Below, piece by piece: positions 33,666-58,216 of a stretch of DNA of 64,000 bases. Where the stretch lies: positions 960,001-1,024,000 of the forward strand of contig CAVSCK010000004.1 of NCBI GenBank assembly GCA_963726455.1, in the 5' to 3' direction. The notes beneath the pieces were generated by a model, which saw only the letters and a program-made list of their open reading frames with translations, had not been told where the DNA came from and made no database searches. The position numbers and the translations under genes were made by a program. Numbering within the stretch: position 1 is the first letter of the stretch; the number at the start of each line of letters is the position of its first letter. This DNA is from an uncultured bacterium. GTDB taxonomy: Bacteria > Zixibacteria > MSB-5A5 > CAIYYT01.

Positions 33666-34724
33666 TTACCATTTCAACCAGTAGCTCGTGCTATCCGGCA
33701 CGGCCACCTGCTTGCGTAATATCGTTCCCGATGAATAGTAAAACGTGAAATCATATTTCGTATCATCGGGCTGCAAATCACTGCTGGGAATCAGATCGAG
33801 AAACCAGTAGCCGGACGAATCCGTTGCTGTCGACACCGCGTAGGGCGACACTACTGCGCCTCCTGCCTGAAGGGGCGACTTGCCGATCCGTGCCGTCACG
33901 ACGACGCTTTCCAGTCCGCCGGCTCCCAACGTGTGCACATATCCATAGACGCGGCAGAGCGCCATATTGCTCGATTGTCCCGGCTCAAATCTACTCGCCC
34001 AGATCGTGTCACATCCTCCCGACGCCGCAACTGTGACTGGCTTGGGCAAGGTTCCGAAATCGTATCCAGTTAGATACGGCAGCACATGATACTCCGCTGC
34101 ATCCAGCGACAACAGCAATCGTCCATCGCTATTCGTTTCGCCGATGGCAGCAGTTGCCGACTCCTGCGAATTAAGCGCCCGCATAAACACTCCTTGCACC
34201 GCCGATTGTGTGGTCGACTCGAACGCGTAGAGAGTGCAGGCGTAGGCGCCCGTTCCCGTCCCAGTCAATCGTTGTGCCAATATACCCAACGTGTCCTTGA
34301 TCGAATCACTATCGACCGCCAACTTCGCCAGGTAGTCCCCCACTTCATCATCGATCACTTGATATCCGCCGACGGCTGCGCCTCGCCAGTCACCACCGAT
34401 CTTGACACGCACGTATACCCGATAATTCCCCAAAGTGGCCGAGGAATTCGCGCCGCGATAATGAATGTCATACCAGCCCTCGCGCACTCGGTAGAAATTC
34501 GATGCTGTCTGTGTCAGCGAGTCGACGAGGCCGTTTTCCGGGCTGTAACGCAACACAATTATACTATCGGCATCGGCGACACGTGGATAGAGCGTCGTAT
34601 CGAACGTGCAGAAAGTAACTACTACCGAATCACTTGCGCCGTTGCCGACGAATGGCGGCGTGACCCAAATTCCGGCACACGCTGTTCCAACAAGAAACAA
34701 CACCAGTACTAATATTGTCCTCAT
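33666..34724 (-). CDS. secreted hypothetical protein, Ig/transthyretin-like domains, last gene of the capsid operon
   Basis: Signal peptide MRTILVLVLFLVGTACAG; TDSSGYWFLDLIP..TKYDF resembles fibre-attachment modules; AGGAG RBS 1 bp after the upstream stop region. Confidence 0.7.
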   Translation of the reverse strand: MRTILVLVLFLVGTACAGIWVTPPFVGNGASDSVVVTFCTFDTTLYPRVADADSIIVLRYSPENGLVDSLTQTASNFYRVREGWYDIHYRGANSSATLGNYRVYVRVKIGGDWRGAAVGGYQVIDDEVGDYLAKLAVDSDSIKDTLGILAQRLTGTGTGAYACTLYAFESTTQSAVQGVFMRALNSQESATAAIGETNSDGRLLLSLDAAEYHVLPYLTGYDFGTLPKPVTVAASGGCDTIWASRFEPGQSSNMALCRVYGYVHTLGAGGLESVVVTARIGKSPLQAGGAVVSPYAVSTATDSSGYWFLDLIPSSDLQPDDTKYDFTFYYSSGTILRKQVAVPDSTSYWLKW

Positions 34725-34725
34725 T

Positions 34726-36225
34726 TTAGTCTCCTATCAGTCCCGAGCCGACAATCTCAAATCTCCGGCGCTGGGAATTCTGTCCAAAGCTTTCAAGTCT
34801 GACTGTCACGACCGGCCGATTGTTGATGACGCCATCGTCGGCTGCGTAGTAAATGATTTCCGCGTCATTGATTGCGCCTGCTTGATTGTTCCAGAAGTTA
34901 TGCCAGACCCAGCCATGATTCATCGTGGTGTCGATCAGCATGCGCTGTGCATACACCGGCGGGATTGTCCAGGTAATCACGCTTCCCGCTGCCGTGTTGC
35001 TGCGGCTCTGGTGTAACGAATCCAGCACCGTATCAACCACGTCACTGTTTATGCCCAATGCGCCGCCTTGATTCCAGGCGTAGCCAAGCCCGTCTTGTTT
35101 GTAGCGATATGTCCAGCAAACATAGTCAGTGTTTGTCTGCCCCGTGGCGCGTCCGCATTGCCAGAACTGCTTCAGCAACCTGATGCCGTTGGTTGATTCC
35201 CACAGCGAGTCATTCAGGTCCTTTGCGACTTGCTTGACCCTGGTTCGAATCCCAAACTGCTCCACCACGGGTGACGGCTGCCACAGCTTGCGTGACATCG
35301 CGTCATTCTTGATCTTCATTACGCTTACTTTCGCATCATAATCCCAGCCGGTATAGAGATCAGGCCAGGCGCCGTAGCTTTCGAGCGAATCGGCTCCGGA
35401 CGAGTTCTCGAAAAATGCATCTTCGATTTCCAGCCAGCCGGTGAAACAAGCGTTGTGCTCAATGAAGTAGTTACCGGTATCGCGCGCCGCCCACGCCACC
35501 GTGCGGTTGAAGATTGTAAAGAACTGGCACGAATCGCGCGACGTTCCCGTTACCGAAAACAATCCGAGAAACGCGCGCCGTCCTCTGGCGACATTGTTGC
35601 CGTCGCCGGTATTGATGATCGTTTCACCCGAATCGGCAACCGCCAGATGCACGAACGCGGTGTCGCCGGCATTATCTTTGTCGATGATCAGCGGCGTGAT
35701 ATCGTGGCAGGTATCGGGAAACGCCAGTCCGTAGATTCCAATGGAAGTCGAGGTCCACAACAGCACCGTGTCCTGCAAGACGCGCGTAATCCAGTGATTC
35801 CGATTTATCGCGCGGACATAACCCGCATTCTCCAGCGTCCTGCCGTTGGTGCCGTCGGAATTGACACCGAGATTGATCTCGTTCCAATTCTCCGACAACA
35901 GACTGACAAAACCGACGCGCGATCTCGCGATCGTGTCCGCGTTGGCCGATGGCGCCGGAATGGCGACCTCGTTGCCGCACCAGACCACAACGTCGAATGC
36001 CGTATCGAAATAGGCCGCAGTGCGCTGCGCCACCGAATCGGGCGTCAGCCAGCGCACGCTGTATTCGAGGTCGCTGCACAGCGCATTGTACAGCAACGTG
36101 TCGATTCCCTTGTTGGCAATGTTGGCGACGACCAGCCCGGCACGTTTGCCGACGGCGTTTGCGTCGACCGCAGTCGCCAGTATCACGGCGAGTGCTATTC
36201 CGAATCCGACGATGACTCTTCTGAT
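34726..36225 (-). CDS. secreted hypothetical protein with DNRLRE-like C-terminal domain
   Basis: Frame is open to ATC at 36225 behind AAGGAGG, giving signal peptide (M)RRVIVGFGIALAVILATAVDANA; C-terminal NHGW..RPVVTV. First canonical start is GTG 36186. Confidence 0.65.
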   Translation of the reverse strand: MRRVIVGFGIALAVILATAVDANAVGKRAGLVVANIANKGIDTLLYNALCSDLEYSVRWLTPDSVAQRTAAYFDTAFDVVVWCGNEVAIPAPSANADTIARSRVGFVSLLSENWNEINLGVNSDGTNGRTLENAGYVRAINRNHWITRVLQDTVLLWTSTSIGIYGLAFPDTCHDITPLIIDKDNAGDTAFVHLAVADSGETIINTGDGNNVARGRRAFLGLFSVTGTSRDSCQFFTIFNRTVAWAARDTGNYFIEHNACFTGWLEIEDAFFENSSGADSLESYGAWPDLYTGWDYDAKVSVMKIKNDAMSRKLWQPSPVVEQFGIRTRVKQVAKDLNDSLWESTNGIRLLKQFWQCGRATGQTNTDYVCWTYRYKQDGLGYAWNQGGALGINSDVVDTVLDSLHQSRSNTAAGSVITWTIPPVYAQRMLIDTTMNHGWVWHNFWNNQAGAINDAEIIYYAADDGVINNRPVVTVRLESFGQNSQRRRFEIVGSGLIGD

Positions 36226-36464
36226 GATGACTCCTCCTTTGATGACAGCTCTTCGTTGCGCAGTTGATTGATCAACTCCCAGATTTTCTGGCGTTCTTCC
36301 TCCGGCAGCCGCAACTTCATTTTCAGTTCCAGCGCCTTCAAAAGGTCACCGACCCGGGGATTGATTTCCTTGCTGCGCAGTTCCTCAATGATCTTGTCCT
36401 GAATTTCCTCCAGAACTTCCAGATCACTCTTGCGTATCTTCGCGGTGTTGTCGCTTTCGGTCAC
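36195..36464 (-). CDS. small helical hypothetical protein (possible small terminase-like)
   Basis: GGAGG RBS and GTG start; charged helices; function inferred from context only. Confidence 0.6.
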   Translation of the reverse strand: MTESDNTAKIRKSDLEVLEEIQDKIIEELRSKEINPRVGDLLKALELKMKLRLPEEERQKIWELINQLRNEELSSKEESSSEESSSDSE

Positions 36465-36465
36465 T

Positions 36466-36621
36466 CTATTGCGCCTCCAATGATGCTTCCAGCAACTCGC
36501 ACGCCGTCTTCCTGAATCGTTTGCAGCAGACCGGGCAGCGGCGAATCACGCCCTGGCTGTTGGCGAAAAACAGCGCGCCGCAATGCGGGCAGAGCACGCC
36601 GTGTAATGGTTCATTCATCAT
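36466..36621 (-). CDS. 51-aa zinc-ribbon protein (absent from the ORF track)
   Basis: MMNEPLHGVLCPHCGALFFANSQGVIRRCPVCCKRF..EAQ*; fills the gap between neighbours exactly. Confidence 0.7.
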   Translation of the reverse strand: MMNEPLHGVLCPHCGALFFANSQGVIRRCPVCCKRFRKTACELLEASLEAQ

Positions 36622-36626
36622 GCAGT

Positions 36627-36998
36627 TCACCCCATTTCAATTATCAGCAGATCGACCGCGGCCACCTGTGTCGTCGGTGTCGCTTTGGCAAGCGCAAACG
36701 ACTTGTCGCCTTCGCTCCCCTGTACGACCACCGGAATGCCACCCTTGGCCAGCGGCAACACACGCGGGTTGGTCAGTTGCTCCGGCAGTTTGTTTCCCTT
36801 CACGTCGACCAGATTCCCGTAGTTAAGTTGCTGCACGGTTCCACCCAGGGCGACTTGAGCGTGCACGATTCGCTTGGACGCGCCCTCGGATTCAGTTACC
36901 ACGAAGTGCGGCTCAAAGGCGGAAATCGTGCCCCAGACATTCACGCCTGACACCCACCACATCTTCTTGCCGAGAAGTTGACTCAATGTGGTACTCAT
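36627..36998 (-). CDS. hypothetical protein in the capsid operon (head completion?)
   Basis: ATGA overlap with the upstream gene; beta-rich 123 aa. Confidence 0.65.
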   Translation of the reverse strand: MSTTLSQLLGKKMWWVSGVNVWGTISAFEPHFVVTESEGASKRIVHAQVALGGTVQQLNYGNLVDVKGNKLPEQLTNPRVLPLAKGGIPVVVQGSEGDKSFALAKATPTTQVAAVDLLIIEMG

Positions 36999-37834
36999 TG
37001 TTCCCTGCCTCCTTTCACTGCCGTCGGCGTATTCAGGCCGCCGCGCGGTCCGGCGAAACGCGCCGCCAGTTGCAGTCCATCGGCGTGATATTTGTCCGCC
37101 AACTCGCGCCAGCCACGCGCAATTTCTGCCGCACCGACTCCGACCGATTCCAGCGCGGCCGCTGCTTTGCCCCGGCAGAGGAATGCCAGCGCCAGATAGG
37201 TCTCGGCCGTGATCAATGATTGATCTCCGGCGTCCTGGTAAGAAGGATCGATCAGCTTCAGCAACAAGTCGTCCGCGGCGGTGATCGCACTCGCGATCAG
37301 CGAGTCATCGGTGCCACCACTCTGAGTTTGATAATCGACGAACACACTCTGGCCATCTTCGATGACGCCGGCGTTAATGCGCCGAAGCGTTCCCTTTTCG
37401 TGATTGACGCTGTAGTCGACGCCTTCCGTGTAGACGCGATAGGCGTAATACCAGACCGCAACGGATGTATCGCTCGGAATACTGCCGGCGGTGATGCGGG
37501 CAAGTTTGCCGTCGGCGTGGTCAACATGGTAATCGACGTTCTCAGTGTAGATGGTTCCCAAGGAACTGTCGGAAGCAACTACCACGCTGTCTGGGATCAG
37601 ATCGCGATTCGCCAGAGTGACCGGCTGCGAAGTCAAAGCCAGGTTTTCGAACCGTGGCGTGCCGATCTCTTTCCCTTTCACTTTCACTGTGCCCTGCCTG
37701 AGATTGGCGTGCAGCAACGCCGACGGCGACGCCGCCAGCAATTGCACCGACACATCCGTGAAAGTGTCACGCGCCTCGCCAACCTGCGCGAGATATTGTC
37801 TGATGGTTTCGATATTCGTAAATGGCATCTTCAC
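36995..37834 (-). CDS. putative head-tail connector-like protein
   Basis: Two YTExVDYxVxxxxG repeats typical of virion proteins; C-terminal helical DDSLIASAITAADD..AETYLALAFL similar to gp6/gp15-type connectors. Confidence 0.55.
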   Translation of the reverse strand: MKMPFTNIETIRQYLAQVGEARDTFTDVSVQLLAASPSALLHANLRQGTVKVKGKEIGTPRFENLALTSQPVTLANRDLIPDSVVVASDSSLGTIYTENVDYHVDHADGKLARITAGSIPSDTSVAVWYYAYRVYTEGVDYSVNHEKGTLRRINAGVIEDGQSVFVDYQTQSGGTDDSLIASAITAADDLLLKLIDPSYQDAGDQSLITAETYLALAFLCRGKAAAALESVGVGAAEIARGWRELADKYHADGLQLAARFAGPRGGLNTPTAVKGGREQ

Positions 37835-37841
37835 ACCTCCC

Positions 37842-39266
37842 TTAGTTGTTCAGGAAATTGATTTCGGGTAACGGCGTAATCTGGCTGCCGATCGGCGCAG
37901 TTGTGAATGCGGAAGTCACGATCACCTTGATCCAGTAAGCATTGAGACCGATGATCGCCGTCTTCTGCCAGTCAGCCGGAGCGGACGCGGAATCGATCCA
38001 GAGCCGGACGCGCTGGGTGAGTTGATCGAAATGATATGCGCCTGACTGTGGTGTGAACTCCTGCCAGGTAGCGCCGTCGAAATATGCCCAGGTTACCGCG
38101 CCACCCGCGTCACCTGCCGTTGACAATATGAAATTGCAGGCAGAGAATTTGTCATCCGCGCCGAGACAGATTGCGTCCCCGACGGACTGAATCAATTTGG
38201 TAGAATCCAAGTGACGAACGTCAGCGACGGCGCTGCTGGCGGCTTCCGCAGTTAGTCCCTGATAGTCGGGGATACCGTTGGTGTCGTACAACAACACATA
38301 CTTGAAGCGCACGAATTCGCCGTTGAGATCGACTGCGGGCTCGAAGCCGACGCCGTTCTTGCGGCGATAACGCAACTCTGTCTGGCCGTCACCGAGCGAC
38401 GTTCCGAAAATCACATAGGGAGTTGCGCCATTGAACATCAGCAACGGCGCAATGACGGGATCGGCGCCGATCTCGTAGGAGGCGCTCCAGTTGGCGCCGT
38501 CGTATTCGATGTACCAGGTTTTTGCGCCTGCGTTGACGGCCACTCCGATAAGTGAACCCGATTCGGAGCAACGCGCCGAAAACGCATCCGACAGCGATGT
38601 TCCGGTGTAAATCGTGACTTCGGATTCCCAGAAGACGCCGCCGTTTGGTATGCGCCGGTATGCGAGTTTGGCGCCGCCGTCGGTGTAGATGCAATACACC
38701 CACGGTTGCAGATACACGAAGCAGCCGTAGCAGCCGCTCGAACCGACCGTCAATGCCTCGCCGGGATCGGCACTTCCGGCCCCCCAGAGTGTGCCTTCAA
38801 CGACAGAAGTCTTGGCGTGTAAGGTATAATTGCCGGTCGCAGAATCGTAACAAGTCCACGAGACCCAGAGCTTACCGGAGACGTCTTTCAGAATCGACGG
38901 AAAGTAGTTGTCCTTGTCATTGTAAATCGTGGCTTCCGCGCCGACGGTCCACACTCCTGCCGAAAACGATAGCTTGCGGAATAACAGGTCGAGCGTGGTC
39001 TCCGCTGTGAATGCGATATAGACGTTGCCGTCTGAGTCCATAGTTGCAGCGACAGGATAGTCGGCGGCGTTGGTGGCGATGGTCTGCGGAGTCGACCAGT
39101 CGGCATACGGCGGATCGGCACAGCTGAATTTGATCGTAGAGGGCGAGGCGGAATAGACAACGATCTGCCTGCCGGAATAGACGCCGGACGTGATCGTAAA
39201 CAACTTGCCGGTCGGTGTGTTACCCGCGCCGTAGAAGGCGGTCGATGTATCAATCAGATTTTGCAT
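37842..39266 (-). CDS. beta-propeller-like putative structural protein
   Basis: Start MQNLIDT (GAGG RBS); repeats such as MDSDGNVYIAF and KDVSGKLWVSW; C-terminal AYWIKV beta-sandwich; follows the MCP. Confidence 0.6.
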   Translation of the reverse strand: MQNLIDTSTAFYGAGNTPTGKLFTITSGVYSGRQIVVYSASPSTIKFSCADPPYADWSTPQTIATNAADYPVAATMDSDGNVYIAFTAETTLDLLFRKLSFSAGVWTVGAEATIYNDKDNYFPSILKDVSGKLWVSWTCYDSATGNYTLHAKTSVVEGTLWGAGSADPGEALTVGSSGCYGCFVYLQPWVYCIYTDGGAKLAYRRIPNGGVFWESEVTIYTGTSLSDAFSARCSESGSLIGVAVNAGAKTWYIEYDGANWSASYEIGADPVIAPLLMFNGATPYVIFGTSLGDGQTELRYRRKNGVGFEPAVDLNGEFVRFKYVLLYDTNGIPDYQGLTAEAASSAVADVRHLDSTKLIQSVGDAICLGADDKFSACNFILSTAGDAGGAVTWAYFDGATWQEFTPQSGAYHFDQLTQRVRLWIDSASAPADWQKTAIIGLNAYWIKVIVTSAFTTAPIGSQITPLPEINFLNN

Positions 39267-39320
39267 GGTTTCCTCTTCAGCGCAGGCCGCCACGATTGCG
39301 CGCGGCGGCCTGCAACAGCG

Positions 39321-40442
39321 TTAGAACGTATCGTCCAGCACCAGCGATGCTTCGTTGATAACTTTGGCGTACGCCACGGACTCGGAGATGACTGCTTCCT
39401 CGAATTTCTGTTCGATGATGCGGTCATATTCCACCACCAGCGGCTGACTGATGACTTCCTCAACCGCGAAGCGTGAATCCATGCCGACGATCAGGTCGGA
39501 CGGAATTTCGTCGCAACGCACCAGCTTGGCGCCCAGCGGCGAGCCCAGTTCGCCCGTCGACTGGAACTTGAATCCGGCGAGCGGATCCTTGAATTCAGTG
39601 AGCGTGAGAATCTGCCGCATCTTGCTCTTGTGGCAGAGAAGCGTGTTCATCTCGAACGGCGCAAACTCCGCCCAGAATTTGACCAGGTCGTCATAGTCGA
39701 AGGAGCCGGAAACATCGGTGTTGAACATCGCGGCGGCATTGTCGTTGCCGTCGCCGTTCTGCACGACGTCAGCCAGCAATGCCACCTTGTCCGACTGCAA
39801 CCGGAAGCCGAGGTACCAGAGCAGCACTTTGAATTGAGCCAGTGTGCGATGCCGCAGCGTGCGATACGACACCTTCAGCGCGATGCCGTATTCCGGCACG
39901 GTCACGGTCTTCTTCTGTTCGTTGACGACGAACTGCGGAATTTCAGCGCCCTCGGATATCGGTCGCAACGACAACCGGCTGTCGCCGGGGGTGATGTTGA
40001 GATAGAGCGGCGAATAGCGATTGGAGCCGATCACCGTCTGCGCGGCGGTGAGTTGATTGTATACTGGGCGCATCGCCATCCCTTTGCGGACCTCGCGCAT
40101 CACGAACTCCGGCAAGAGCGACGCGGCGGCGCGATAGAATGCTTCGACGGTGTCGGGAGTTCTGCCGTTGACGCGAATGCCGTGCACCGCGAGTTGTCTT
40201 TCGAAGGCATCGAGCGGCGCGCCAACCGGCGAGGGATCGTAGTCATCGCCTTCCAGCAGTTCGGTCAAGCTCAAGCCCCTGGCTTGCGCTTCGAGATAAG
40301 TGTCGCGCGTGATGTTGATCTTGCCGGCGCGGCTTAAATCGACGTTCGCCAGCCGCGTATCTTTGCCGGCAAATGCATCAAGATCAGGCGCCGTGAGATT
40401 CCAGAAGTTGTCCGGTATTTGTTTCAGGTTTTCTAATTCCAT
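39321..40442 (-). CDS. major capsid protein (HK97-fold, inferred)
   Basis: 373 aa from MELENL; LDAFERQL..GIRV..DTVEAFY..LLPEFV..VRKGM, EGAEIP, YGIALKVSY, EYDRIIE resemble a capsid family I recall from Firmicutes prophages; expected position after protease/scaffold/cement. Confidence 0.8.
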   Translation of the reverse strand: MELENLKQIPDNFWNLTAPDLDAFAGKDTRLANVDLSRAGKINITRDTYLEAQARGLSLTELLEGDDYDPSPVGAPLDAFERQLAVHGIRVNGRTPDTVEAFYRAAASLLPEFVMREVRKGMAMRPVYNQLTAAQTVIGSNRYSPLYLNITPGDSRLSLRPISEGAEIPQFVVNEQKKTVTVPEYGIALKVSYRTLRHRTLAQFKVLLWYLGFRLQSDKVALLADVVQNGDGNDNAAAMFNTDVSGSFDYDDLVKFWAEFAPFEMNTLLCHKSKMRQILTLTEFKDPLAGFKFQSTGELGSPLGAKLVRCDEIPSDLIVGMDSRFAVEEVISQPLVVEYDRIIEQKFEEAVISESVAYAKVINEASLVLDDTF

Positions 40443-40524
40443 TCCTTCTCCTTTGCGGCCAGTCACGTTGACAGGCCATAGTTGATCGATTGCCAGGTAA
40501 TTGCTGCTCCCCTTGTGCACTGCC

Positions 40525-40947
40525 TCAATTGAGGAGCAGCGTGCAGTCGCTGGTGCCGTTAACCGACAACACCAGTCCGCGCGCGATATTGCCGCCGGCA
40601 GGATCGTTGCCGGTCAACGCTGGCGCTTGTTTGATTTTGCCGTCGGCGGCGCCGACGATGCTGTTGCCGATTACCGGATAGGTAGCTGCGATGGCGAGAG
40701 ACATCACGCCGGCTACCTGCACGGTCGCTTTGCGCTTGCCGTTGTCGGCATCAGTGAGAGTGAGCGCGATCAACTTACCGAGCACCTGTACCCCGTCGGT
40801 GGTAGCTTTGACCCGGTTGCCGGTACTCAGTTGAACGGCTTTGCCGATGTCAGCGTTCTTGAGGTCGTCGCTGCCGGCGGTTTGAGCGATGTCGAAGGTC
40901 AGATATAGCGCGCCGGTGGTTTCCAGATTTTGTTCACGTACTGCCAT
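40525..40947 (-). CDS. capsid decoration/cement-like protein
   Basis: 140 aa with DIGKAVQL, ATVQVAG and ADGKIK; immediately upstream of the MCP. Confidence 0.6.
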   Translation of the reverse strand: MAVREQNLETTGALYLTFDIAQTAGSDDLKNADIGKAVQLSTGNRVKATTDGVQVLGKLIALTLTDADNGKRKATVQVAGVMSLAIAATYPVIGNSIVGAADGKIKQAPALTGNDPAGGNIARGLVLSVNGTSDCTLLLN

Positions 40948-41000
40948 TGTGATCCTTTCCAGTCAGTTTGGTTCGCGTCGGTTTGTCGGCGAACCAATGG

Positions 41001-41396
41001 TTACACTTTGAACTCGGACGTCTTTTCTCCCCCGGCGGCCGCACCTGTCGGCTCTGTCTGCTTGCGGGAGAAGACGCGGTCGAATTCGGTTTCGATGTCC
41101 TGTTTGATTCGTTGCAGGTCGGCAAGGTCGGTCGTGTCGGCGGAGATTAAGCGTTCGACCAATGCGCTCGAACCGCCGGCGAGGCGGGCGATAGCGCGGG
41201 CTTTGCTGCAGAGCTCGTCTTTGAACAGTTGCACGAGGCGGTCGGCGATTGCCGCGCGCGCCTGCAGTGCCTGCAGAACCGTGACGGCGTTCTCAAGCTC
41301 AACGGCGAGTTGCTCGAAATCGATGTCGGCAAGTTGCGCCTGCTTGAGGCGTCCGGCGGTTTGCATGAGTGATTCAAACAGTTTGGTGAATTCCAT
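41001..41396 (-). CDS. coiled-coil scaffold-like protein
   Basis: GAGGAGG RBS before MEFTKL; helical; lies between protease and cement genes. Confidence 0.55.
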   Translation of the reverse strand: MEFTKLFESLMQTAGRLKQAQLADIDFEQLAVELENAVTVLQALQARAAIADRLVQLFKDELCSKARAIARLAGGSSALVERLISADTTDLADLQRIKQDIETEFDRVFSRKQTEPTGAAAGGEKTSEFKV

Positions 41397-41437
41397 GATA
41401 TCCTCCTCTGAAGTTTCGTTGATAGAGATTGCGAGTG

Positions 41438-41761
41438 TCAACGTTCGTCACCGGGTAGCATTTGCAATTTGGCTTCAATGATGAGCAGTTGACGATGCAG
41501 GTCGTCGCGGACCTGTTGCAGTTCGGCTTTGGTGGCCATGCGTTCGGTCAGAATGGTTTCGATGCGCACCAGGCGGCTGTCGATAGTGGTCACCATGGCG
41601 GAGTCGGCCTTGGCGGCGATCTCCGATTTGAGGCCGTAGATGGTGGCGTGATAGGCGGTGACAATTCCCGCCACCGTCACGATCAGACCCAGCAGAAATC
41701 GCAACAGGTTTTCTTTGCGGAACAGCTCCGGCCTGTGGCTCGAATTAGACAGTCTGTTCAT
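41438..41761 (-). CDS. single-TM coiled-coil protein (holin/XhlA-like candidate)
   Basis: LLRFLLGLIVTVAGIVTAY transmembrane segment followed by heptads. Confidence 0.6.
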   Translation of the reverse strand: MNRLSNSSHRPELFRKENLLRFLLGLIVTVAGIVTAYHATIYGLKSEIAAKADSAMVTTIDSRLVRIETILTERMATKAELQQVRDDLHRQLLIIEAKLQMLPGDER

Positions 41762-43559
41762 GTTGCATACTCCTTCTCAGCTTTCCGAACAACCAGATGG
41801 CGCGCTTGCCGAAATGCGTCTGCTCAATCGCATAGTGGCCGGACAACGAGGCGCCGGAAAGTTCAAGCGCAATCTTGTTGGGAGTGGATTGATCGAGGCC
41901 ATTGATCACACCCTGATCGACCAGAGCGACGCGACCGGAAGGACGTTCGCAATGTGGCGAGTTGTCGATTTGTTGGCATACCTGTCGATGTCCAACCGGC
42001 AGTGTTATGGGATTGCGTCCGCGCAGGCGCAGCACTGACACGCTGTCATCGTGATGAAGTTCGAGCCAGTAGTCGCCGCGGCTGTCGTGCAGCAGGCGGA
42101 AACGATTGTCGCCATTCGTCGGCTTCAGCTTGGTTGCGACAGATGCGAAGTCGGGGTAAGCGTCGCCGATGCAGAGATCGAGATAGACAAATCGATTCCG
42201 ATCATGCTTGTCAGGATGCACCACGATGATTTCGCCGGTGTGCAGGTGCGAGGTCTTTCCGATCAGACGATGACAAGTTGGCGTTTCAGTTTCAATGGAC
42301 GTTCTGAATTCGACAAAGTAGTTCGACTTCCCATTCGCTTGCGGCTCGATGACAACTTTGCCGCGCAATTGTTGCTGGTGACGAATCTCGAAGACCTGCG
42401 GCGCATCACTGCCGGCGAGATCGATAATGCGCATTCCTTCGCCACTCCCCTTGCTCGCGGCCTTGTGTTGCAGGTCAACGAAGCGGCAGCGATAATGAGC
42501 CAGCGGCGCAATCGATTGTGAACGAGTGAAACGCTTTGTGAGAATCGCCTTGCGTTCGATCAGTGAAAGTCGCGACAGATCGGCGCCATCCAGACGATAA
42601 AGATCGACCAGACTCAGAAAACAGCGCGGCTGCTTCCTTCCAGAGGAATACTCTCGCAACGTCTCAAGCGATAGACGGCTGGCGCCTTTTACCGGAATCA
42701 GTTGCGCCAGTACTCGGAAGTCGGCGACGCCAGATGAGCCGGTGAGTTCGTCCAGAATCGGATCGGTGAAACACGTGCCGTCAAGTTTCGTCGCCGTGAG
42801 TTTGCCGGCGCGCGAGTCGATATCGAGCCAGATGCCGTGATAGAGTGGCTCGATCAGAATTTCATCGAGTGGGGTTTTGAGTTTCGCAAGGTCAAAGAAG
42901 ACCTCGGCCCGCGAGCGCCAGAACGTGTCGGTTGAATCCGTGAAGTCGACATCGGCGGCCAGCGAACTCACGCGCGTGTTGGGGACGGCGCCACGATAGA
43001 CGAGCGAGACTTCCAGCACTTTTTCAATCTGCTTGTAGAAGTAGAATGCGCGTACCTCCCTGCCGCCAAGGCGAACGACTTCATTAAGGCGGTGCCGGCA
43101 ATGCCGCATATCTTCGCGACAGATGCAGCATTCCGGTTTGCCGTAAAGAAATCCGAGGGAACATTCTTTGTAGATGCCGGATTCGATGCCGGCCTTCAAC
43201 GTGTCGGCGTCGCGTTGATCGCGGTGCCAGTAGAACCAGGCCTGCAACCAGGGAGTGCCGTCGCGAGGAACAACTTCGCTTTTGAAGACGCGGCCGATCG
43301 GCAGTTCCTGTTTCTTGTGCCCAACCATGACCGGCGCATCGACGATCAGTTGTGCGAGTTGTGTCAACTCAGTGATCTCGAAACAGCCGCCCTGCAGGTT
43401 GACTTCGTTCGATGCCGCCTGCAAGAGGCCGAGATAGACGTTGTCGGCTGTGACCGATTGCGACGGCTGCACGACGCGGTTGATTTCATCGATAAGTTCC
43501 TGTCGATCGCCCAACTCACCGGCGGCTGAGATCGACAATGAACCAATAAGCTTTTCCAC
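41745..43559 (-). CDS. prohead protease-like domain fused to degenerate ATP-dependent ligase and LigD phosphoesterase-like domains
   Basis: GTG start with GAGGAGGT RBS; VMVGH, PIGRVF, KECSLGF, CCIC..CRH, LEVSLV; then EPLYHG, VDLYRLDGADL..ERKAIL, GEGMRI; then VDQG, LSGASLSGHY, WLFGK. Confidence 0.7.
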   Translation of the reverse strand: MEKLIGSLSISAAGELGDRQELIDEINRVVQPSQSVTADNVYLGLLQAASNEVNLQGGCFEITELTQLAQLIVDAPVMVGHKKQELPIGRVFKSEVVPRDGTPWLQAWFYWHRDQRDADTLKAGIESGIYKECSLGFLYGKPECCICREDMRHCRHRLNEVVRLGGREVRAFYFYKQIEKVLEVSLVYRGAVPNTRVSSLAADVDFTDSTDTFWRSRAEVFFDLAKLKTPLDEILIEPLYHGIWLDIDSRAGKLTATKLDGTCFTDPILDELTGSSGVADFRVLAQLIPVKGASRLSLETLREYSSGRKQPRCFLSLVDLYRLDGADLSRLSLIERKAILTKRFTRSQSIAPLAHYRCRFVDLQHKAASKGSGEGMRIIDLAGSDAPQVFEIRHQQQLRGKVVIEPQANGKSNYFVEFRTSIETETPTCHRLIGKTSHLHTGEIIVVHPDKHDRNRFVYLDLCIGDAYPDFASVATKLKPTNGDNRFRLLHDSRGDYWLELHHDDSVSVLRLRGRNPITLPVGHRQVCQQIDNSPHCERPSGRVALVDQGVINGLDQSTPNKIALELSGASLSGHYAIEQTHFGKRAIWLFGKLRRSMQHEQTV

Positions 43560-43590
43560 TGTACCTCCTCGGGGCTTACCACATGCCCTC

Positions 43591-43636
43591 ACTTATGTCC
43601 GCCATGTGGATTTATCCTCAAGAGCACTACAAAAAT
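43591..43636 (-). promoter_or_regulatory. conserved upstream motif of the capsid operon (copy 2)
   Basis: Minus strand ATTTTTGTAGTGC-N10-AAATC-N11-CATAAGT. Confidence 0.7.
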
Positions 43637-43794
43637 TCGGGGGCCCGTTGAAGACGTAAGTCGCTGTTGGGCAACAACGGGAAATGTGCACACGTTTGCG
43701 CAAGAAACCGGGTTGTTGCGGGTCGGATTTACCAGCAAAAATATTTTCGTGATGCTGGACAATGTGTTACGATGTTTTTGGGCTTGACAGGTCT

Positions 43795-43810
43795 GGGCAC
43801 GAGAGTTGCT
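43795..43810 (+). promoter_or_regulatory. sigma54 -24/-12 promoter
   Basis: GGGCACGAGAGTTGCT (GG-N10-GC) about 30 bp upstream of the PEP-CTERM gene. Confidence 0.65.
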
Positions 43811-43840
43811 TGAGTATGTGTCGCAAGAAGGAGGAAATTC

Positions 43841-44176
43841 TTGGAACGTACAATGACTTATCTGAAGCTGCTCGGTATCCTGATCGGGATCGTGATGACG
43901 ATTCTCTGTTTGGGTTACACGAATGCCTACGGAATAACCGCTCCGCATTTTCTGATGAACAATCAGAACGGCGGCACGAACTCGACCGGCCTTACCAGTG
44001 GTGGCGACATAACTGACGAGGTCAGGATTCTGGGGGACAGATTCAATCAGGATAATCTGGACGGCACCAATTCGACCGGCGATGAAAAGAGTCCGCCGTC
44101 GATTCCGGAACCGGCGACGCTGATACTGTTGGGCACCGGTCTGGTTGGTGTCAAGCTGTTCAGACGGCGCCATTAG
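43841..44176 (+). CDS. small PEP-CTERM protein
   Basis: AAGGAGG RBS and TTG start (or ATG 43853); signal peptide; IPEPATLILLGTGLVGVKLFRRRH. Confidence 0.88.
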   Translation: MERTMTYLKLLGILIGIVMTILCLGYTNAYGITAPHFLMNNQNGGTNSTGLTSGGDITDEVRILGDRFNQDNLDGTNSTGDEKSPPSIPEPATLILLGTGLVGVKLFRRRH

Positions 44177-45504
44177 ATTTCACTCAGGCGAAAGCCGGGG
44201 CTGATTCCACGATTTGCAACAACTTTCGCCTGCCACAGCGCCAGCGCCAAAGCCATACAGGCATCGGCAGTGGTGTTTTCCTCCCAACTCAATTCACGTA
44301 ATTCCTCGGTAAACGACCAGTAGTCGTTGTTGGCCGTCGTCAATTCGATGGACGGAATGGCGACATTGCTCGATTCGAATTGCGATTGCAGATTCGTGAG
44401 CAACTCAGGTTTGGATTTCGGCGAGAAGATGAAGCCGATGGCTTTGATGTCCTGCAATTCCTGCAGTACGACATCGCCGGCGCCGGTGGCATCAATGATG
44501 GTGTCACCGCCGAATTCGCGTTGACGTTGGCGAATCGTTTCGAAGACGTTCGGCCAGTCGCGACGATGGAAGCGTTCGAGTTTGACGACTTGGTGCGGAC
44601 GCGTGGTGACATCGAGCGTAATGCCGACGGTATATGTCTGTTTGCGCGCGAGATCCCAGCCATGAATGTAGCGATGATGCGGTAGTTTCTCCGACATTCC
44701 GGTTGATTGCGACAGCGCCTGCTGAATGTACTCCTCCCCTAACACCGCATTTCCCGAATCGACGAACATGCCATAGATGTTTTGTTGAACGCGCGTTTGC
44801 GGCAGCGATTCGATTTTGGCGCAGAGGTATTCGCTGGAGAGAAAGGGATTGTCGGTTGATCTGCCGGAGTGAACATAGCCCGTATCAGGTTGCGATTGGA
44901 GTTCAAGATATTTGCGATGGAACCAATTGCGTCCGCGCGGAGTCGAGACCAGGTCGAGCATGCCCTTGCGGTCAGCGAGGCGCATAGTCAAGACTTCGTT
45001 GACGACATAGTCAGGATGCAACTCAAAGGCGACCTCGTCGAAATTGATGTAGTCGTAATCATGGCCGAGAATATGTTCGCCGCGATTCTGCGACGTGCGG
45101 GCCGTGATTTCGGCGCCGTTGCCGAGTTCGATTTTGGGATACGGCGTGTAGGTGACTTTGTCGACGAGCAACTCGACCAGCGATTTGCCTTTGATGAGAT
45201 TGAGGCAATTCGTGAAGATGATGTTGGCCTGATCCTGCGTGATGGAAACATTGAGCACTCGGTAACGGCCCGCGGAATCGAAGCGCGTGTCGCGATGGCG
45301 ATAGACGGCGCGGTGAATAATCTTGGCGGCCTGAATCGTTGATTTGCCCCAACGGTTGCCGGTCACGAGCAGGTTCTGACCGCAGGTTGAATTTGTCAGC
45401 CAGGCGGCTTGTCCCGGATGGGGATCGAGTTCGAGAAATTCGCGGCAGAAAAGCACGGGATCGGTGACGGCTTTTCGCCAGCGGCTGTGTTTACCTACGC
45501 GCAT
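44173..45504 (-). CDS. terminase large subunit
   Basis: Walker A GNRWGKS, Walker B INFDEVA, VSTPRG, DNPFLS; nuclease GWDLA, IIDATGAGD, DACMALALA. Confidence 0.9.
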   Translation of the reverse strand: MRVGKHSRWRKAVTDPVLFCREFLELDPHPGQAAWLTNSTCGQNLLVTGNRWGKSTIQAAKIIHRAVYRHRDTRFDSAGRYRVLNVSITQDQANIIFTNCLNLIKGKSLVELLVDKVTYTPYPKIELGNGAEITARTSQNRGEHILGHDYDYINFDEVAFELHPDYVVNEVLTMRLADRKGMLDLVSTPRGRNWFHRKYLELQSQPDTGYVHSGRSTDNPFLSSEYLCAKIESLPQTRVQQNIYGMFVDSGNAVLGEEYIQQALSQSTGMSEKLPHHRYIHGWDLARKQTYTVGITLDVTTRPHQVVKLERFHRRDWPNVFETIRQRQREFGGDTIIDATGAGDVVLQELQDIKAIGFIFSPKSKPELLTNLQSQFESSNVAIPSIELTTANNDYWSFTEELRELSWEENTTADACMALALALWQAKVVANRGISPGFRLSEI

Positions 45505-45516
45505 AGGGTGACCTTT

Positions 45517-45890
45517 CTATTCTGTGAGACACAGGTGTTTCGATGGGACACGGAACACACCCCTTGATCCCCTCTCGAGAGGGGAAAACAACAAACGGCT
45601 CATCTCGCGGCTGGAAAAGAGAGCGTCAAGACCGAAGCGGTTTTGATCTATAACTACTACACCTACGCGCATGGGCATGATAGATTGCCTCCTCCTGTCT
45701 TCGGACAATCAGGAATGTTTGACCTACGAGGCCTCTTGATGCAAGGCGCGTTACGAGAGGGACAAACAGGAATGTTTATCCTACCGAACTGCTCACACTT
45801 GCATACGCCGGCATAGATTCTATTACCCATTCGTACATCGCAACAAACTTCCCTCACCCCTAGCCCCTCTCCCAATGGGAGAGGGGAAGA
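45517..45890. repeat. host REP-like cluster between terL and portal
   Basis: CACACCCCTTGATCCCCTCTCGAGAGGGG, TCAAGACCGAAGCGGTTTTGA, GGACAAACAGGAATGTTTATCC and CCCTCACCCC..CCCTCTCCCAATGGGAGAGGGG, all also found outside the cluster. Confidence 0.82.
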
Positions 45891-46021
45891 GGGTGTTGGG
45901 GGATGAAGTGCGGGGTGGTGTGAGGATGATGAGGGTGACATTGCTTCTCCTGACTAGACTAGCGATGGACGAGGGCTGCGTTTTCGCAGCGTCGCAGGTC
46001 GTCTATTCCATACTTGGCGGA

Positions 46022-47302
46022 TCACTGCATCCGTGACAGTTCGCGTAAGGCCTGATCGTGTGTGATCAGTTTGTTGTCGAGCTTGGTGATGATGTTTTCG
46101 AGCATGATCTTTTCGGCCTGGGCGCGGTCGGCGATGCCGATGGTGATGCGGTTGTCGAAATGAGAACGGACTTCGACATTGAATCCGAGGAGCGCCAGTT
46201 CAACGTTGGCAATCCAATCAATCAGCGATGCCGCCGCCTGCTGCACGGTGGCGACCTGCCGCTGCACGAGTTCATACTTGAACTCGGCCCAGTTGTGCGT
46301 GGTGCCATACGCGTAGCCGAGCATGAAGGGCGCGAGATTGGTGCCGGCGCAGATGTCCTCGATCATGGCCTTGTGGTTCATGTACCAAGCCGTCGACGCG
46401 GAAGATTTGGACGACGGGCCGATGTATTCGATCTTGACATCGTTCCAGGTGACCGGATTCTTGTCGGGGCCGAAGTCGTGCATCATCTCGACGGTGTCAT
46501 CGAAATAGGAATTGGCGCGGCGGTAATAGTCCTCTTCGGTTTCGTCGGCGCGGCGTTCCGGTGGCGTGAGTTGCACGTGAATGCGGTGGTAGCCGGAGCT
46601 GCGCATGGAGCGATGCATGTCATTGATCAGGGTTTGCTCGACGCGGGCGACGAAAGGAATCGAATGTAGCAGCGAGCGGCCGACAACATTGCCGGGTTGC
46701 GTGCCGAGACCGTAGTAGAAGATCGATTGGTCGTTGAGCGGGATTTTGTGTTCGTCGAAAGATTGATACAGCCGATGGTGGTCGCCCTCCTGCTCGACCG
46801 TGATGGACAACATATCCGCGAGCAGAAATCGTTCGACGCGATTGCGCGAGGGCGTAAGTTGCAGCTCGCCGCAGATGGCGCCGTCGGTGAAGAGTGATTC
46901 GAAAAATTGGAGTAGCAGTTCGCGAAAGCCGCCGCGCTTCATCAGCCCGTCGCGGAAAATGCGGGCATCAAGATCGGCAAGCGCCGTGCGGATACGGTCT
47001 TCCTCGGAAGCCGAGACATCGCCGACGACCTGGAAGTCATAGTCAGCAGCGCAGAGCCGCACCCAGGTCCAGACGACGGCGTTGAGAACGGGGACGTGGT
47101 CGCGCAGGAAACGGTAGAGCTGCCGCCGCGCGCGGTCGGTTTCGGCGGCGTCAACCGGAAGGCGGGGATTGAGTTCGAGGAATGAAGCGCGCAGCCGGGG
47201 GCGGGATTTGAGGCCCGCCGGTACGTCTAACTTGTTGGTCTTGCGCAGGTTCTCGTTGATTGTGGCATTGTTGCGCCGTTTTCGCCAAAAGTCTGTGATC
47301 AT
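46022..47302 (-). CDS. phage portal protein
   Basis: 426 aa next to TerL; LYRFLRDHVPVLNA..VRL, GRSLLHSIPFV, VKIEYIG, APFMLG resemble portal families; AGGAGG RBS. Confidence 0.75.
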   Translation of the reverse strand: MITDFWRKRRNNATINENLRKTNKLDVPAGLKSRPRLRASFLELNPRLPVDAAETDRARRQLYRFLRDHVPVLNAVVWTWVRLCAADYDFQVVGDVSASEEDRIRTALADLDARIFRDGLMKRGGFRELLLQFFESLFTDGAICGELQLTPSRNRVERFLLADMLSITVEQEGDHHRLYQSFDEHKIPLNDQSIFYYGLGTQPGNVVGRSLLHSIPFVARVEQTLINDMHRSMRSSGYHRIHVQLTPPERRADETEEDYYRRANSYFDDTVEMMHDFGPDKNPVTWNDVKIEYIGPSSKSSASTAWYMNHKAMIEDICAGTNLAPFMLGYAYGTTHNWAEFKYELVQRQVATVQQAAASLIDWIANVELALLGFNVEVRSHFDNRITIGIADRAQAEKIMLENIITKLDNKLITHDQALRELSRMQ

Positions 47303-47319
47303 GTTTCGATAGTCCTCCT

Positions 47320-47365
47320 ACTTATGGGGGCGACCAAGATTTTTGGTGTTCGGCGCTACAAAAAT
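47320..47365 (-). promoter_or_regulatory. conserved upstream motif of the portal-terL operon (copy 1)
   Basis: Minus strand ATTTTTGTAGCGC-N10-AAATC-N11-CATAAGT. Confidence 0.7.
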
Positions 47366-47411
47366 GCAAAAAGGACTTGCGCGTCAACGCTGGCTTGATT
47401 ATATAATCACC

Positions 47412-47514
47412 GGAAACCCGAGTGTTGTTGTTGGTTTAGACACAAGCCAAAAGCATTCAAAGATCTCCAACTTGTGTTCCCCGCAATAGCCAACACACAA
47501 CACTCGCTTTTTTT
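47412..47514 (+). ncRNA. candidate ~100-nt rod-shaped small RNA
   Basis: Upstream TTGCGC and TATATA/TATAAT; three nested stems; ends in T7; no ORF. Confidence 0.45.
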
Positions 47515-48096
47515 GCGTAAGCGCCGCACAAACTGCGATCAGCTAATCTCAAGCCACACAAACTCTTAGTGTTTTCGGGACAACATTTCTGTTTAGGTCA
47601 TGGGCGCAGTTACTGCTCTGCGTTGACTGCGCCGGAATGCCCCTCAGTTAAGAGCTTGTATTTCAGTCAGTTACGAAATGGCAAATAAGAGAAGTGCGGG
47701 CATGCAATTTGTTAGAGTTAGGGGCAGAAATGGGTTGAACAAAACCGTGTCAAGGATCACAGTAATGTCAAACGACAACCTGTTTCTAACGAAGCGTTTT
47801 GCATTACCGATTGGTGGGGAGATCTAACGGGTCTCCTCACTGAAACTGAGGACCTAACCGCTAAAGTTGAGATGGCGGGAAGTTTCGTCAAAGCAGCGCA
47901 GTTTTGACATCGTAGTAATGTTGCTTCTTTGGGATTAGAATCGGGAGGATAATTGCGAGATTGTCCTCCCGGGATGAAAGTGAGATAGAGGACAACAGAG
48001 GACAGGGAGACAGAGTAACAAAGCCCGCAATTATTTTACATACCTACCTACAAGACCTTGAGTTACCGGGTTAGTAGTAACGACAAGTTGCTCAAG

Positions 48097-48131
48097 CAAG
48101 GCCGGATCCGAGCCCTCGGAGCCCGGCCTTG
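48097..48131 (-). terminator. hairpin downstream of the SBBP gene
   Basis: CAAGGCCGG..CCGGCCTTG inverted repeat about 20 bp after the stop. Confidence 0.55.
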
Positions 48132-48149
48132 TTATTTTGGTGTAATCCC

Positions 48150-56751: not shown

Positions 56752-58211
56752 AGTTTGTAGATTTCGTTTCGGTCTCGGCAGGAAATCTCTGGCGCATGAA
56801 GCTGCGGACGTTTTTGACGACCTCCGGAGTTGTGATCGCCATTGCCGCATTCGTGGCGATGCTGTCCTTCGGTGCCGGAAATCAGGAATATGTGTCCAGG
56901 CAGTTCGAGCAGTTGGGACTCTTCACGACGATGCAGGTGTTCCCCAAAACCAACTCCGGCAACAATGACACGGCGACAGTTGCGCCGCTTGATCAGGCGG
57001 CGTTGGACAAAATCGCCAAGGTCCCGGGCGTCAGATTGGCTTATCCATATGACGCCTTCCAAGTGCGCGCACAAATTGGAGATTCGAGCTCCACTACCAG
57101 GGCGCAGGCGCTGTCACAATCGGCAATCAGCACCAAGCTCTTTTCAAATATTCTGGCAGGCAAACCGTTTGACAATGACAGTGCGCGCCAGGCGCTGGTC
57201 ACGAGTGAGTATTTGCGAGAGCGCGGATTCAAGGCGCCCGACTCGCTGATCGGTTCACAGGTTGTGCTGACAGTCAGAGTATCGAGCATCGACAGCGGAT
57301 TGGCGTATGTGGTCGCGGACGGCCCACAGAGAGTTCGCGATTTGGTCGGGCGAATTTCGGCGGACTCGCTGCTGCGTTCGGCAGACTATCGCAGAATTCT
57401 ATTTCGCACGGAAGTCAACGACGCGCTGAGCCGATTCATCAAAGGATTTTTGAACGCCAGAGGAGAGATCAAGGATACGCTGACGATTTGTGGGATACTT
57501 GAAGAACGGCGGCTGGGACACCTCCGATCGGGATCGATAATGATTCCCGTGCAGACTGCGCGGCAATTCACCGGCAACGGTTTTACCGACGATCCCGCGA
57601 GCATTATCACGGCAATCAGTAGCGGCAATATATTTCCGTCAGCTGGCGGCGGCGGGAAGAACTATCCGCAAGTGACACTTGATCTCGATCCACACATCCT
57701 CTACAAGACCGTGAAGGATTCGGTCGAGGCGCTGGGGTTCAGGACATTCAGCTTCGCCGAACAGTTTGAGGAGATTCAGAAATTCTTTTTCTACTTCGAT
57801 CTGGCGCTGGGAGTGGTTGGTTTGATCGCGTTGATCACCGCATCACTGGGCATCATCAACACAATGGTGATGTCGATTCTGGAGAGGAAACGCGAGATCG
57901 GCGTGCTGAAATCGCTGGGCGCCGACGAACGAGATATTCGCTACTTGTTCCTTGCGGAATCCGGCGTGATCGGAGCGATCGGCGCTGCCACGGGGATTCT
58001 GTTCGGATGGTTGATAACGAGACTGGTTTCGGCCATCGCTCGCGCGATCATGATCAGTGAAGGCATACCGGAGACGGAATTGTTTGCGCTGCCGATCTGG
58101 CTGGTCGGAATCGCGCTGGCAATCGGGATTGGTGTCAGTCTCGTCGCGGGTTTGTATCCGGCGGCAAGAGCGGCGCATATTGATCCGGTGGAAGCGTTGA
58201 GGAACGAGTAG
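56748..58211 (+). CDS. ABC transporter permease (MacB/FtsX type)
   Basis: LRTFLT, GIINTMVMSILERKREIGVLKSLGA, YPAARAA..DPVEALR. Confidence 0.92.
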   Translation: MKFVDFVSVSAGNLWRMKLRTFLTTSGVVIAIAAFVAMLSFGAGNQEYVSRQFEQLGLFTTMQVFPKTNSGNNDTATVAPLDQAALDKIAKVPGVRLAYPYDAFQVRAQIGDSSSTTRAQALSQSAISTKLFSNILAGKPFDNDSARQALVTSEYLRERGFKAPDSLIGSQVVLTVRVSSIDSGLAYVVADGPQRVRDLVGRISADSLLRSADYRRILFRTEVNDALSRFIKGFLNARGEIKDTLTICGILEERRLGHLRSGSIMIPVQTARQFTGNGFTDDPASIITAISSGNIFPSAGGGGKNYPQVTLDLDPHILYKTVKDSVEALGFRTFSFAEQFEEIQKFFFYFDLALGVVGLIALITASLGIINTMVMSILERKREIGVLKSLGADERDIRYLFLAESGVIGAIGAATGILFGWLITRLVSAIARAIMISEGIPETELFALPIWLVGIALAIGIGVSLVAGLYPAARAAHIDPVEALRNE

Positions 58212-58216
58212 GAATC

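Follow-up and report, generated by a model that had tools for sequence, protein, structure and literature searches.

What is a gapped 46-bp motif doing at two separate places in a cluster of phage-like structural genes? The question is raised by a 64,000-nt stretch of DNA from an uncultured bacterium of the Zixibacteria type (contig CAVSCK010000004.1, positions 960,001 to 1,024,000; this whole stretch is hereafter referred to as the window), in which one copy of the motif lies upstream of the portal gene and the other upstream of the gene that opens the capsid half of the cluster. The initial annotation of this locus took the two copies for a late-type promoter or activator site serving both halves of a split cluster. 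Our analysis recovered diverged versions of the motif at the same two places in related genomes, and we hold, with slightly better than even confidence, that the sites are promoters of a non-canonical type, to which a dedicated factor encoded by an unlinked gene would bind. The motif would most likely be a switch turning both gene blocks on together.

Two motif copies and two gene blocks

The motif coordinates, read on the minus strand, are as follows.

47365-47320, minus strand: site 1 (portal copy), the 46-bp gapped pattern, with TGTAG at 47360-47356
47346-47338, minus strand: A/T-rich box of site 1, CCAAAAATC
47326-47320 and 47319-47314, minus strand: purine-rich box of site 1, CATAAGT followed by AGGAGG, the portal ribosome-binding site
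43636-43591, minus strand: site 2 (the "protease" copy), extending with GAGGG to 43586, with TGTAG at 43631-43627
43617-43609, minus strand: A/T-rich box of site 2, GGATAAATC
43597-43591 and 43590-43586, minus strand: purine-rich box of site 2, CATAAGT and then GAGGG

Both copies read as the initial annotation had described them, and they are unique in the window. Its observation that CATAAGT abuts the portal ribosome-binding site was also confirmed: copy 1 adjoins AGGAGG directly, and the portal ATG, which begins an open reading frame (ORF) of 426 aa, follows at 47302. At site 2, the start codon (GTG 43559) is 31 nt past the end of the copy and is preceded by GAGGAGG, the real ribosome-binding site, so that the GAGGG of the site stands about 20-30 nt from the elements actually used for initiation. 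The A/T-rich box reads CAAAAAT in one copy and GATAAAT in the other.

The two copies are identical at 29 of 46 positions. A hand count of these two window copies gave identity at 24 of the 25 block positions and at 5 of the 21 spacer positions. With up to three mismatches allowed, the gapped pattern matched twice in the window and not at all in any of 100 dinucleotide shuffles, and two-block combinations did not recur elsewhere in the window. As a control, the 120-nt upstream regions of 35 other gene starts in the window were compared pairwise (595 pairs); the best ungapped 46-mer had a mean of 21.8 identities, and only two pairs reached at least 29. A profile built from the relatives described below matched only sites 1 and 2 in the window, with no other match at E<0.03. 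A weak third match (E 0.035, 58270-58233) was dropped because it sits in a GC-rich palindromic repeat.

The division of the cluster into two halves, proposed in the initial annotation, is borne out by a gene on the opposite strand that lies between the two blocks. The genes concerned are listed below.

46022..47302, minus strand: portal gene, first of unit 1 (phrog_3753, E 1.7e-21; 465 homologs)
44173..45504, minus strand: large terminase subunit, last of unit 1 (phrog_2, E 1.3e-30)
43841..44176, plus strand: PEP-CTERM gene, 111 aa (signal peptide; PEP-CTERM anchor matching PF07589 at 30 bits, cut-off 20.7)
41745..43559, minus strand: first gene of unit 2, 604 aa, ligase-domain family
33666..41761, minus strand: rest of unit 2, comprising small conserved proteins, the capsid, a 483-aa protein, a 279-aa protein and others
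39321-40520, minus strand: major capsid (head) protein (PHROG profile)

The PEP-CTERM gene converges on the terminase gene and overlaps the terminase stop by 4 nt. When the spacer between the terminase gene and site 2 (550-620 nt) was aligned in 12 close genomes, it was found to hold a conserved opposite-strand gene with its own ribosome-binding site and start. Opposite-strand ORFs with a PEP-CTERM ending occupy the same place in other clades; all five such ORFs tested gave PEP-CTERM matches (one above the cut-off, four just below), and middle-clade loci hold a conserved 142-145-aa secreted protein there instead. Because this gene separates the units, unit 2 cannot simply continue from the portal promoter. 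The portal-terminase half and the ligase-to-capsid half are separate transcription units, and a start for unit 2 is therefore needed within the 281-nt divergent region (43841-43559), where site 2 lies as one of few conserved islands. The opposite-strand gene thus strengthens the two-promoter reading.

A second conserved island of the divergent region (43703-43681, minus strand) reads TGCA, about 8 nt, TGCACAT, at a variable distance from site 2, and could serve as an operator, or else as the antisense gene's own promoter. In the two nearest relatives, an insertion of 2.7-3.2 kb is found between the terminase gene and site 2 (L001 5627-8868, L002 12793-15525), in which no long ORFs were recognised. 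A small secreted protein of the exosortase-sorted type (PEP-CTERM) is thus embedded antisense in a capsid cluster (43841-44176, plus strand).

The label "protease" for the gene after copy 2 has to be abandoned, since a domain of the ATP-dependent DNA ligases is present in its orthologs. This domain, PF01068, was found in five of five middle-clade orthologs of the 41745-43559 gene (L024, L025, L033, L034 and L039; 699-786 aa; E 1e-28 to 4e-31), the orthology of the first genes of unit 2 being supported by N-termini that are alike across clades. The domain was marginal (E 0.0008, 0.008) or undetected in four close-clade orthologs, and the window's 604-aa copy yielded no Pfam match and weak leads only; the ligase domain may be degenerate in the window's clade. 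The 279-aa protein of unit 2 had a weak match to a tail tube model.

As the sites are direct repeats that bracket the 3.7-kb portal-terminase segment, they might be thought to serve packaging (as pac-type sites) or site-specific recombination. A gene for the small terminase is not evident, and TGTAG occurs in tandem, 11 bp apart, in some relatives, as such a role might suggest. However, the repeats are gapped, with unrelated spacers and no identical core, a start codon follows each site closely in every clade, and no recombinase lies nearby. We find this explanation scarcely credible.

GC-rich palindromic repeats of the form CCCCTCGCCC..GGGAGAGGGG..GGGTGAGGG are scattered intergenically in the window (45846-45919, 58210-58620, and the same type upstream of 18821, 54098 and 61780), and similar repeats occur in L038, L043 and L052. 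One such hairpin fills the portal-terminase spacer and creates a spurious 92-aa ORF. Another ORF, of 194 aa (43589-44173, minus strand), is overlapped by copy 2 over its final 15 codons and is probably not a gene; neither of these two ORFs, both located between phage-like genes, has a homolog in any of the 80 related loci.

The motif in related genomes

An alignment of 38 portal proteins, drawn from 120 listed homologs, was used to search one-genome-per-species contigs; it gave 141 stretches encoding relatives, the best 80 of which, with 10-kb flanks, were retained as related loci (L001-L080). The nearest named portal relatives are metagenome-assembled genomes of Zixibacteria. According to their record titles, 40 of the 80 loci are from Zixibacteria, 32 from "uncultured Ignavibacteria/-les/-ceae" (a label left unchecked), seven from other bacteria and one from Terriglobales. 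The terminase gene lies downstream of the portal gene in 70 of the 80, and the capsid gene and its neighbours are in the same order wherever the contig is long enough (capsid protein in 39 of 80). The close clade comprises L001-L016, L058 and the window (18 genomes; portal identity 59-77%), followed by a middle clade (45-50%) and a third clade (about 40-43%).

Neither the exact pattern nor slightly relaxed forms of it occurred in any of the 80 related loci. The three blocks as drawn in the initial annotation are thus specific to this genome, but three clades of relatives have a diverged three-box version of the motif, both before the portal gene and before the first gene to follow the terminase. 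As re-defined from alignments, the motif consists of a GTAG-type core, an A/T-rich box (GAT/GGTGAT) in which AAATC lies, and a purine-rich box, CATAAGT making up no more than the 5' half of the latter. As homologous, if diverged, versions occupy both of the orthologous positions in the relatives, we consider the motif to be under selection.

In the close clade, the boxes are (T/C)TGTAG, then 10 nt, an A/T-rich box (CGATAAT, CAAAAT, GATAAAT or similar), about 17-18 nt, and a purine-rich box consisting of T-W-R-G-T followed by AGGAGG, GAGGG or AGAGG. A profile of 24 close-clade sites gave 29 matches at E<=0.022, all of which fell at one or other of the two places, in coding-strand orientation. 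The training set did not include five of the 29, which were site-2 copies with GGTAG or AGTAG cores; site 2 of L011 came next, at E 0.14. By our own tally, site 2 is present in 15 of the 16 close-clade genomes having the sequence and was missed in L015. In site 2 of several relatives TGTAG occurs twice, 11 bp apart, an arrangement that fits a protein bound to one helix face.

Site 1 of the middle clade consists of an A-run, TGTAT or CTAC, then TGTGGTGATAAGGAT and then TTTGAGAGG. Site 2 of this clade lies about 0.9-1.9 kb past the terminase gene in most loci and contains the last two boxes. Site 1 was detected in 18 loci and site 2 in 10, with six of the matches outside the seeds. In the third clade, a start codon comes directly after each site; the middle boxes are of the GATGGTGAT type and are accompanied by TTAGTAA + GGAGG. 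Here, 11 loci yielded site 1 and seven seeds site 2, and new site-2 copies were recovered in L078, L074, L042 and L068 (E<=0.013) and in L048 (E 0.024). Elsewhere in the about 1.25 Mb of loci, no other profile match was obtained at E<0.03; the initial annotation had regarded frequency in unrelated intergenic DNA as telling against the motif, and it is not frequent elsewhere in either these loci or the window.

A third motif copy was observed in L048 (about 6231) and L051 (about 14578), some 410 nt ahead of the small conserved gene that comes next, and some relatives may therefore have three motif-headed units. The idea of a GTAG core active in either orientation, suggested by CTAC in some loci, was dropped, as only a 4-bp (G/C)TA(G/C/T) core at a fixed distance is shared.

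The two sites of a genome are more similar to one another than expected from comparisons across lineages. The identity of site 1 and site 2 was 0.68 within genomes and 0.62 between lineages (permutation p=0.0005; nine lineage representatives from the 14 genomes having both sites), the window's own pair being barely above background (63% versus about 60%). The likeness extends over 33 nt at 91% in L011 (spacers included), 19 nt at 95% in L012, 55 nt in L072 and 35 nt at 86% in L080, and L071 and L077 have the same unusual middle-box variant in both copies. Such lineage-specific letters, shared by the two copies, indicate that co-evolution or gene conversion also acts; the data fit a regulator with few targets drifting together with its sites as well as gene conversion, and do not separate them. 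The initial annotation had invoked selection rather than recent duplication. Selection is upheld by the retention of the sites in relatives, but the opposition between the two is too sharp, as the copies of one genome share letters peculiar to their lineage.

It could be argued from this excess similarity, and from the L011 pair in particular, that the motif is a functionless repeat, kept alike by gene conversion or derived from a lineage-specific duplication of the portal leader; the close-clade site 2 has also gained a GTAG core that the middle-clade site 2 is without. This explanation, already disfavoured, is very improbable: both sites persist at the same two places in three clades with portal identity down to about 40%, and the window spacers are at chance identity (5/21), as against 24/25 for the block positions.

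Promoter, messenger element or antitermination site

No sigma-70-type site (TTGACA-like -35, 16-18 nt spacer, TATAAT-like -10 with A at 2 and T at 6) was found on either strand in 43300-48300, versus 3.3 +/- 1.8 in shuffles, and in the window copies the GTAG core is only 10 nt from the A/T box. Among the other upstream regions of the window, at least 4 of 21 show, by eye, TTGACA, a 16-17 nt spacer and a TAnnnT-like hexamer. Two dockerin/SBBP beta-propeller paralogs have nearly identical leaders (upstream of 50651 and 53540, minus strand) with the textbook arrangement TTGACA-N16-TATCTT, and we therefore conclude that the host uses canonical promoters. For sigma-54, neither window copy has GG-N10-GC in register (read by eye, with no dedicated scan). 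The sigma-28 (FliA) consensus is TAAA-N15-GCCGATAA; in the window copies, a T-run stands where TAAA would be expected, and the -10 is replaced by CCAAAAAT or GAGGATAA. The initial annotation had noted a misfit to all three factors. This holds for sigma-70, for sigma-54 and, in the window, for sigma-28, but in close relatives an A-run is followed, after about 15 nt, by CTCGATAA, which resembles a sigma-28 promoter.

The same resemblance is seen in the middle and third clades, where the A-run is followed, after 15-17 nt, by GGTGATAA or GGTGATTT. It would be explained if a host alternative sigma factor, sigma-28-like or other, read the promoter directly with no separate activator. However, the window and its three nearest relatives have the T-run and are without CGA, the distance from A-run to box varies by up to 3 nt between clades (read by eye), and lineage-wise drift of the sites would not be expected under a sigma factor with many host targets. 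Direct reading by such a factor is quite improbable.

According to the reading that we favour, a non-canonical promoter dependent on a dedicated factor, each copy would be the head of one transcription unit: portal and terminase in the first case, the ligase-family gene through the capsid and tail-tube genes in the second. The A/T-rich box (holding AAATC) would act as a -10-like element without a -35 hexamer, and the GTAG core, about 10 bp upstream of it, would contact an activator or an alternative specificity subunit encoded elsewhere. We take the A/T box as -10-like because the strongly conserved portal ribosome-binding site must be in the mRNA, and this choice would set the start of transcription between the A/T-rich and purine-rich boxes. 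The purine-rich box (CATAAGT and the GAGG run) would then be at the 5' end of the mRNA, as a ribosome-binding site or a Shine-Dalgarno (SD)-like element, and the GTAG core would fall at about -27 to -23, the place of a class-II-type activator or of a substitute -35 contact. The A/T half of the purine-rich box was ruled out as the true -10, since the start would fall after the well-conserved ribosome-binding site. Co-variation of the sites within a genome is what a regulator with few targets allows, and was therefore counted in favour of a dedicated factor.

This arrangement has parallels among phage late promoters. The late operons of P2, 186 and P4 (activators Ogr, B and delta) and of Mu (C protein) share an activator-dependent promoter with a usable -10 and no -35. 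As in these systems, the morphogenesis genes are split (portal and terminase; capsid), with the same promoter at the head of each operon, and the activator would, by analogy, be encoded elsewhere; in the window and in the three clades, the same motif heads both units, without a -35. In contrast, the activator sites of P2 and Mu are dyads, at about -55 in P2 and about -30 to -55 in Mu, whereas the core described here is only about 10 bp from the A/T box and is followed by a purine-rich third box, and there is no sequence likeness. From the initial proposal of a co-regulating late-type promoter we can thus retain the location, as the motif heads each of two co-oriented blocks, but the promoter function is something that we infer, as are RNA polymerase starting at the sites, the position of the start and the existence of the dedicated factor.

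A second type of comparison is provided by the T4 middle promoters, with a MotA box at about -30, the lambda CII promoters, with TTGC-N6-TTGC, and the PhoB promoters, with boxes of direct repeats, 11 bp in period, next to the -10. In these, as proposed here, a factor box replaces the -35 beside a -10-like box, and the doubled core of several relatives has an 11-bp period; unlike this type, the window and most site-1 copies are without the second repeat.

The conserved letters could also be recognised in the mRNA, as a standby site, a translation enhancer, a 5' stabiliser or the operator of an RNA-binding translational regulator, rather than as a promoter. In the close clade, the portal gene has the purine-rich box as its actual ribosome-binding site, as do both genes in the third clade, and where the true ribosome-binding site is 25-45 nt further on, the box still resembles an SD sequence (GAGAGG, GAGGG); its distance from the GTAG core is nearly fixed (read by eye). 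In this respect, it resembles the 5' mRNA stabilisers of the STAB-SD type, which carry an SD-like sequence near the 5' end. This likeness offers a possible role for the third box only, and leaves the two upstream boxes unexplained. RNAalifold gave no consensus structure (0 kcal) in 24 close-clade or 22 middle-clade sites, single-sequence folding was no better than in shuffles (z-scores -0.2 and -0.5), and neither site had an Rfam match at E<=10. In view of this lack of a consensus fold or Rfam match, we read the conserved letters as linear sequence. Against an mRNA element stand the lack of conserved RNA structure, the stretch of 30-45 nt, variable in sequence, by which the most conserved letters (GTAG, GGTGA) precede the SD-like run, and the opposite-strand gene that unit 2 follows, which means that the same 281 nt must hold a promoter anyway. 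We consider an mRNA-level function unlikely.

The three-part layout would also suit a loading site for a Q-type processive antiterminator, with GTAG as the factor site, the A/T box as the -10 and CATAAGT as a -10-like pause element. The A/T-rich second -10-like element lies 12-13 nt after the first, an arrangement found at lambdoid late promoters and, by homology, at the Bartonella and Caulobacter promoters for gene transfer agents (GTAs). BrrG is reported to act at the bgtA-K promoter, where a -10-like element is required (bioRxiv 10.1101/2024.11.20.624540), and a GafZ binding element is reported between the -35 and the -10 (PMC11150451). However, the known cases use a canonical sigma-70 promoter, a kind not found in 43300-48300, no minus-strand terminator-like site was detected downstream of either copy within the same interval, CATAAGT is not kept as a -10-like hexamer in relatives, and no Q-like gene was seen. 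A Q-type loading site is therefore distinctly unlikely.

Several points weigh against a factor-dependent promoter. The assignment of the -10 is weak: in the middle and third clades, the middle box has a G-rich invariant core, GGTGA(T), without the A and the T most needed by sigma-70, and from clade to clade the GTAG core and the A/T box stand 2 bp nearer or further apart (read by eye). The middle-clade site 2 is without the GTAG core. A plain promoter leaves unexplained why the purine-rich box should be conserved at sites where another sequence is the ribosome-binding site. The invariance of the close-clade boxes is partly built in, as the 24 training sites were picked by a pattern demanding TGTAG and an A-rich box. 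In a generic local alignment of the portal leader with the 3.5 kb after the terminase, the window pair was not significant (p=0.28); 18 of 61 loci were (p<=0.01), at least three of them (L038, L043 and L052) through unrelated GC-rich repeats. Gene conversion alone could be the source of the within-genome similarity. Finally, the promoter role is read from position and sequence, and the analysis found no candidate regulator.

The cluster on the chromosome and a conserved RNA candidate

The window is bacterial chromosome, with genes for an amino-acid ABC transporter, Lon, a helicase, a protein sorted by the type IX secretion system (T9SS) and several dockerin/beta-propeller proteins. The cluster (33666-47516, minus strand) keeps its gene order across all clades, with portal identity from 77% down to 40%, and no integrase, replication or lysis genes were recognised among the cluster and window genes scanned. 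cvpA lies upstream in the four close loci tested (L004, L008, L010 and L016) and about 15 kb upstream in the window; recG is upstream in the two middle loci tested by Pfam (L025 and L039), with like-sized ORFs in L024 and L033; and cdp lies downstream in the window, L012 and L013. Known phage records are only distantly related (portal identity at most 26%, capsid protein 23-37%). As stated in the initial annotation, the regulator is not evident: none was recognised in the cluster, and the flanking genes are housekeeping genes only. The cluster looks like a domesticated, chromosomally fixed, GTA-like element that many Zixibacteria-type genomes have in common. We found no paper linking Zixibacteria to gene transfer agents.

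Cluster promoters have been described for RcGTA with GafA (PMC9638019), CcGTA with GafYZ and integration host factor (IHF) (PMC11150451) and BaGTA with BrrG (bioRxiv 10.1101/2024.11.20.624540). Each is reported to be a domesticated, chromosomally fixed phage structural cluster with a long conserved non-coding region before its first gene, as observed here, and in each a dedicated factor binds a multi-element promoter region, as would by analogy be the case in the window. The three GTAs are reported to be single operons with a canonical sigma-70 promoter and antitermination, whereas the window has two units, each with a non-canonical motif. Their hosts are Alphaproteobacteria, rather than bacteria of the Zixibacteria type.

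The non-coding region upstream of the portal gene (850 nt) holds further boxes conserved in close relatives, together with one longer conserved block.

47416-47516, minus strand: structured-RNA candidate, about 100 nt, about 50 nt upstream of site 1

This block is almost invariant among genomes with portal proteins only 59-77% identical, has nested stems and had no Rfam match. A covariance model detected it in 17 close sources (15 complete, including the window, and two cut by the contig end) and, more weakly, at a corresponding position in L049, L048, L051 and L042. On 13 sequences, 79% of cells pair in the structure, as compared with 31-45% when the partners are slid; this structure was derived from the same sequences as were scored, and the majority group has two C-A mismatches. 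The closing pair, which shows a compensatory change in weak copies from the more distant loci, is C-G in eight sequences, G-C in four and U-A in one, and the covariation score was 0.149, versus 0.091 +/- 0.015 in shuffles (0/500 as high). These features make the block a candidate for a new structured RNA tied to the cluster. Two palindrome-like CAG..CTGCG boxes lie upstream of it (47615-47604 and 47537-47524, minus strand), and a TATATAAT box and a GCGCAAG box are found between it and site 1 (47405-47398 and 47382-47376, minus strand).

The motif itself is of an ordinary kind, on our reading a shared late-type promoter, and its surroundings, the GTA-like cluster and the RNA candidate, are more novel. 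It is possible, although we regard it as doubtful, that a dedicated regulator co-evolving with the motif by lineage switches both halves of a vertically inherited GTA-like cluster, and that the structured RNA belongs to the same circuit or particle. If true, domesticated phage particles would include a new lineage with a promoter type and an RNA of its own. If the sites are indeed promoters, they would provide two probes for reporter assays, and the profile, scanned over whole genomes, would be a means of finding the rest of the regulon (such as lysis, tail and regulator genes); the middle-box variants GGTGAT, GCAGAA and CGATAA would form a natural co-variation series that could identify the regulator. 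Should the reading of the sites as a factor-dependent promoter hold, they would provide a handle on the control of a phage-derived particle cluster in a widespread group of uncultured bacteria.

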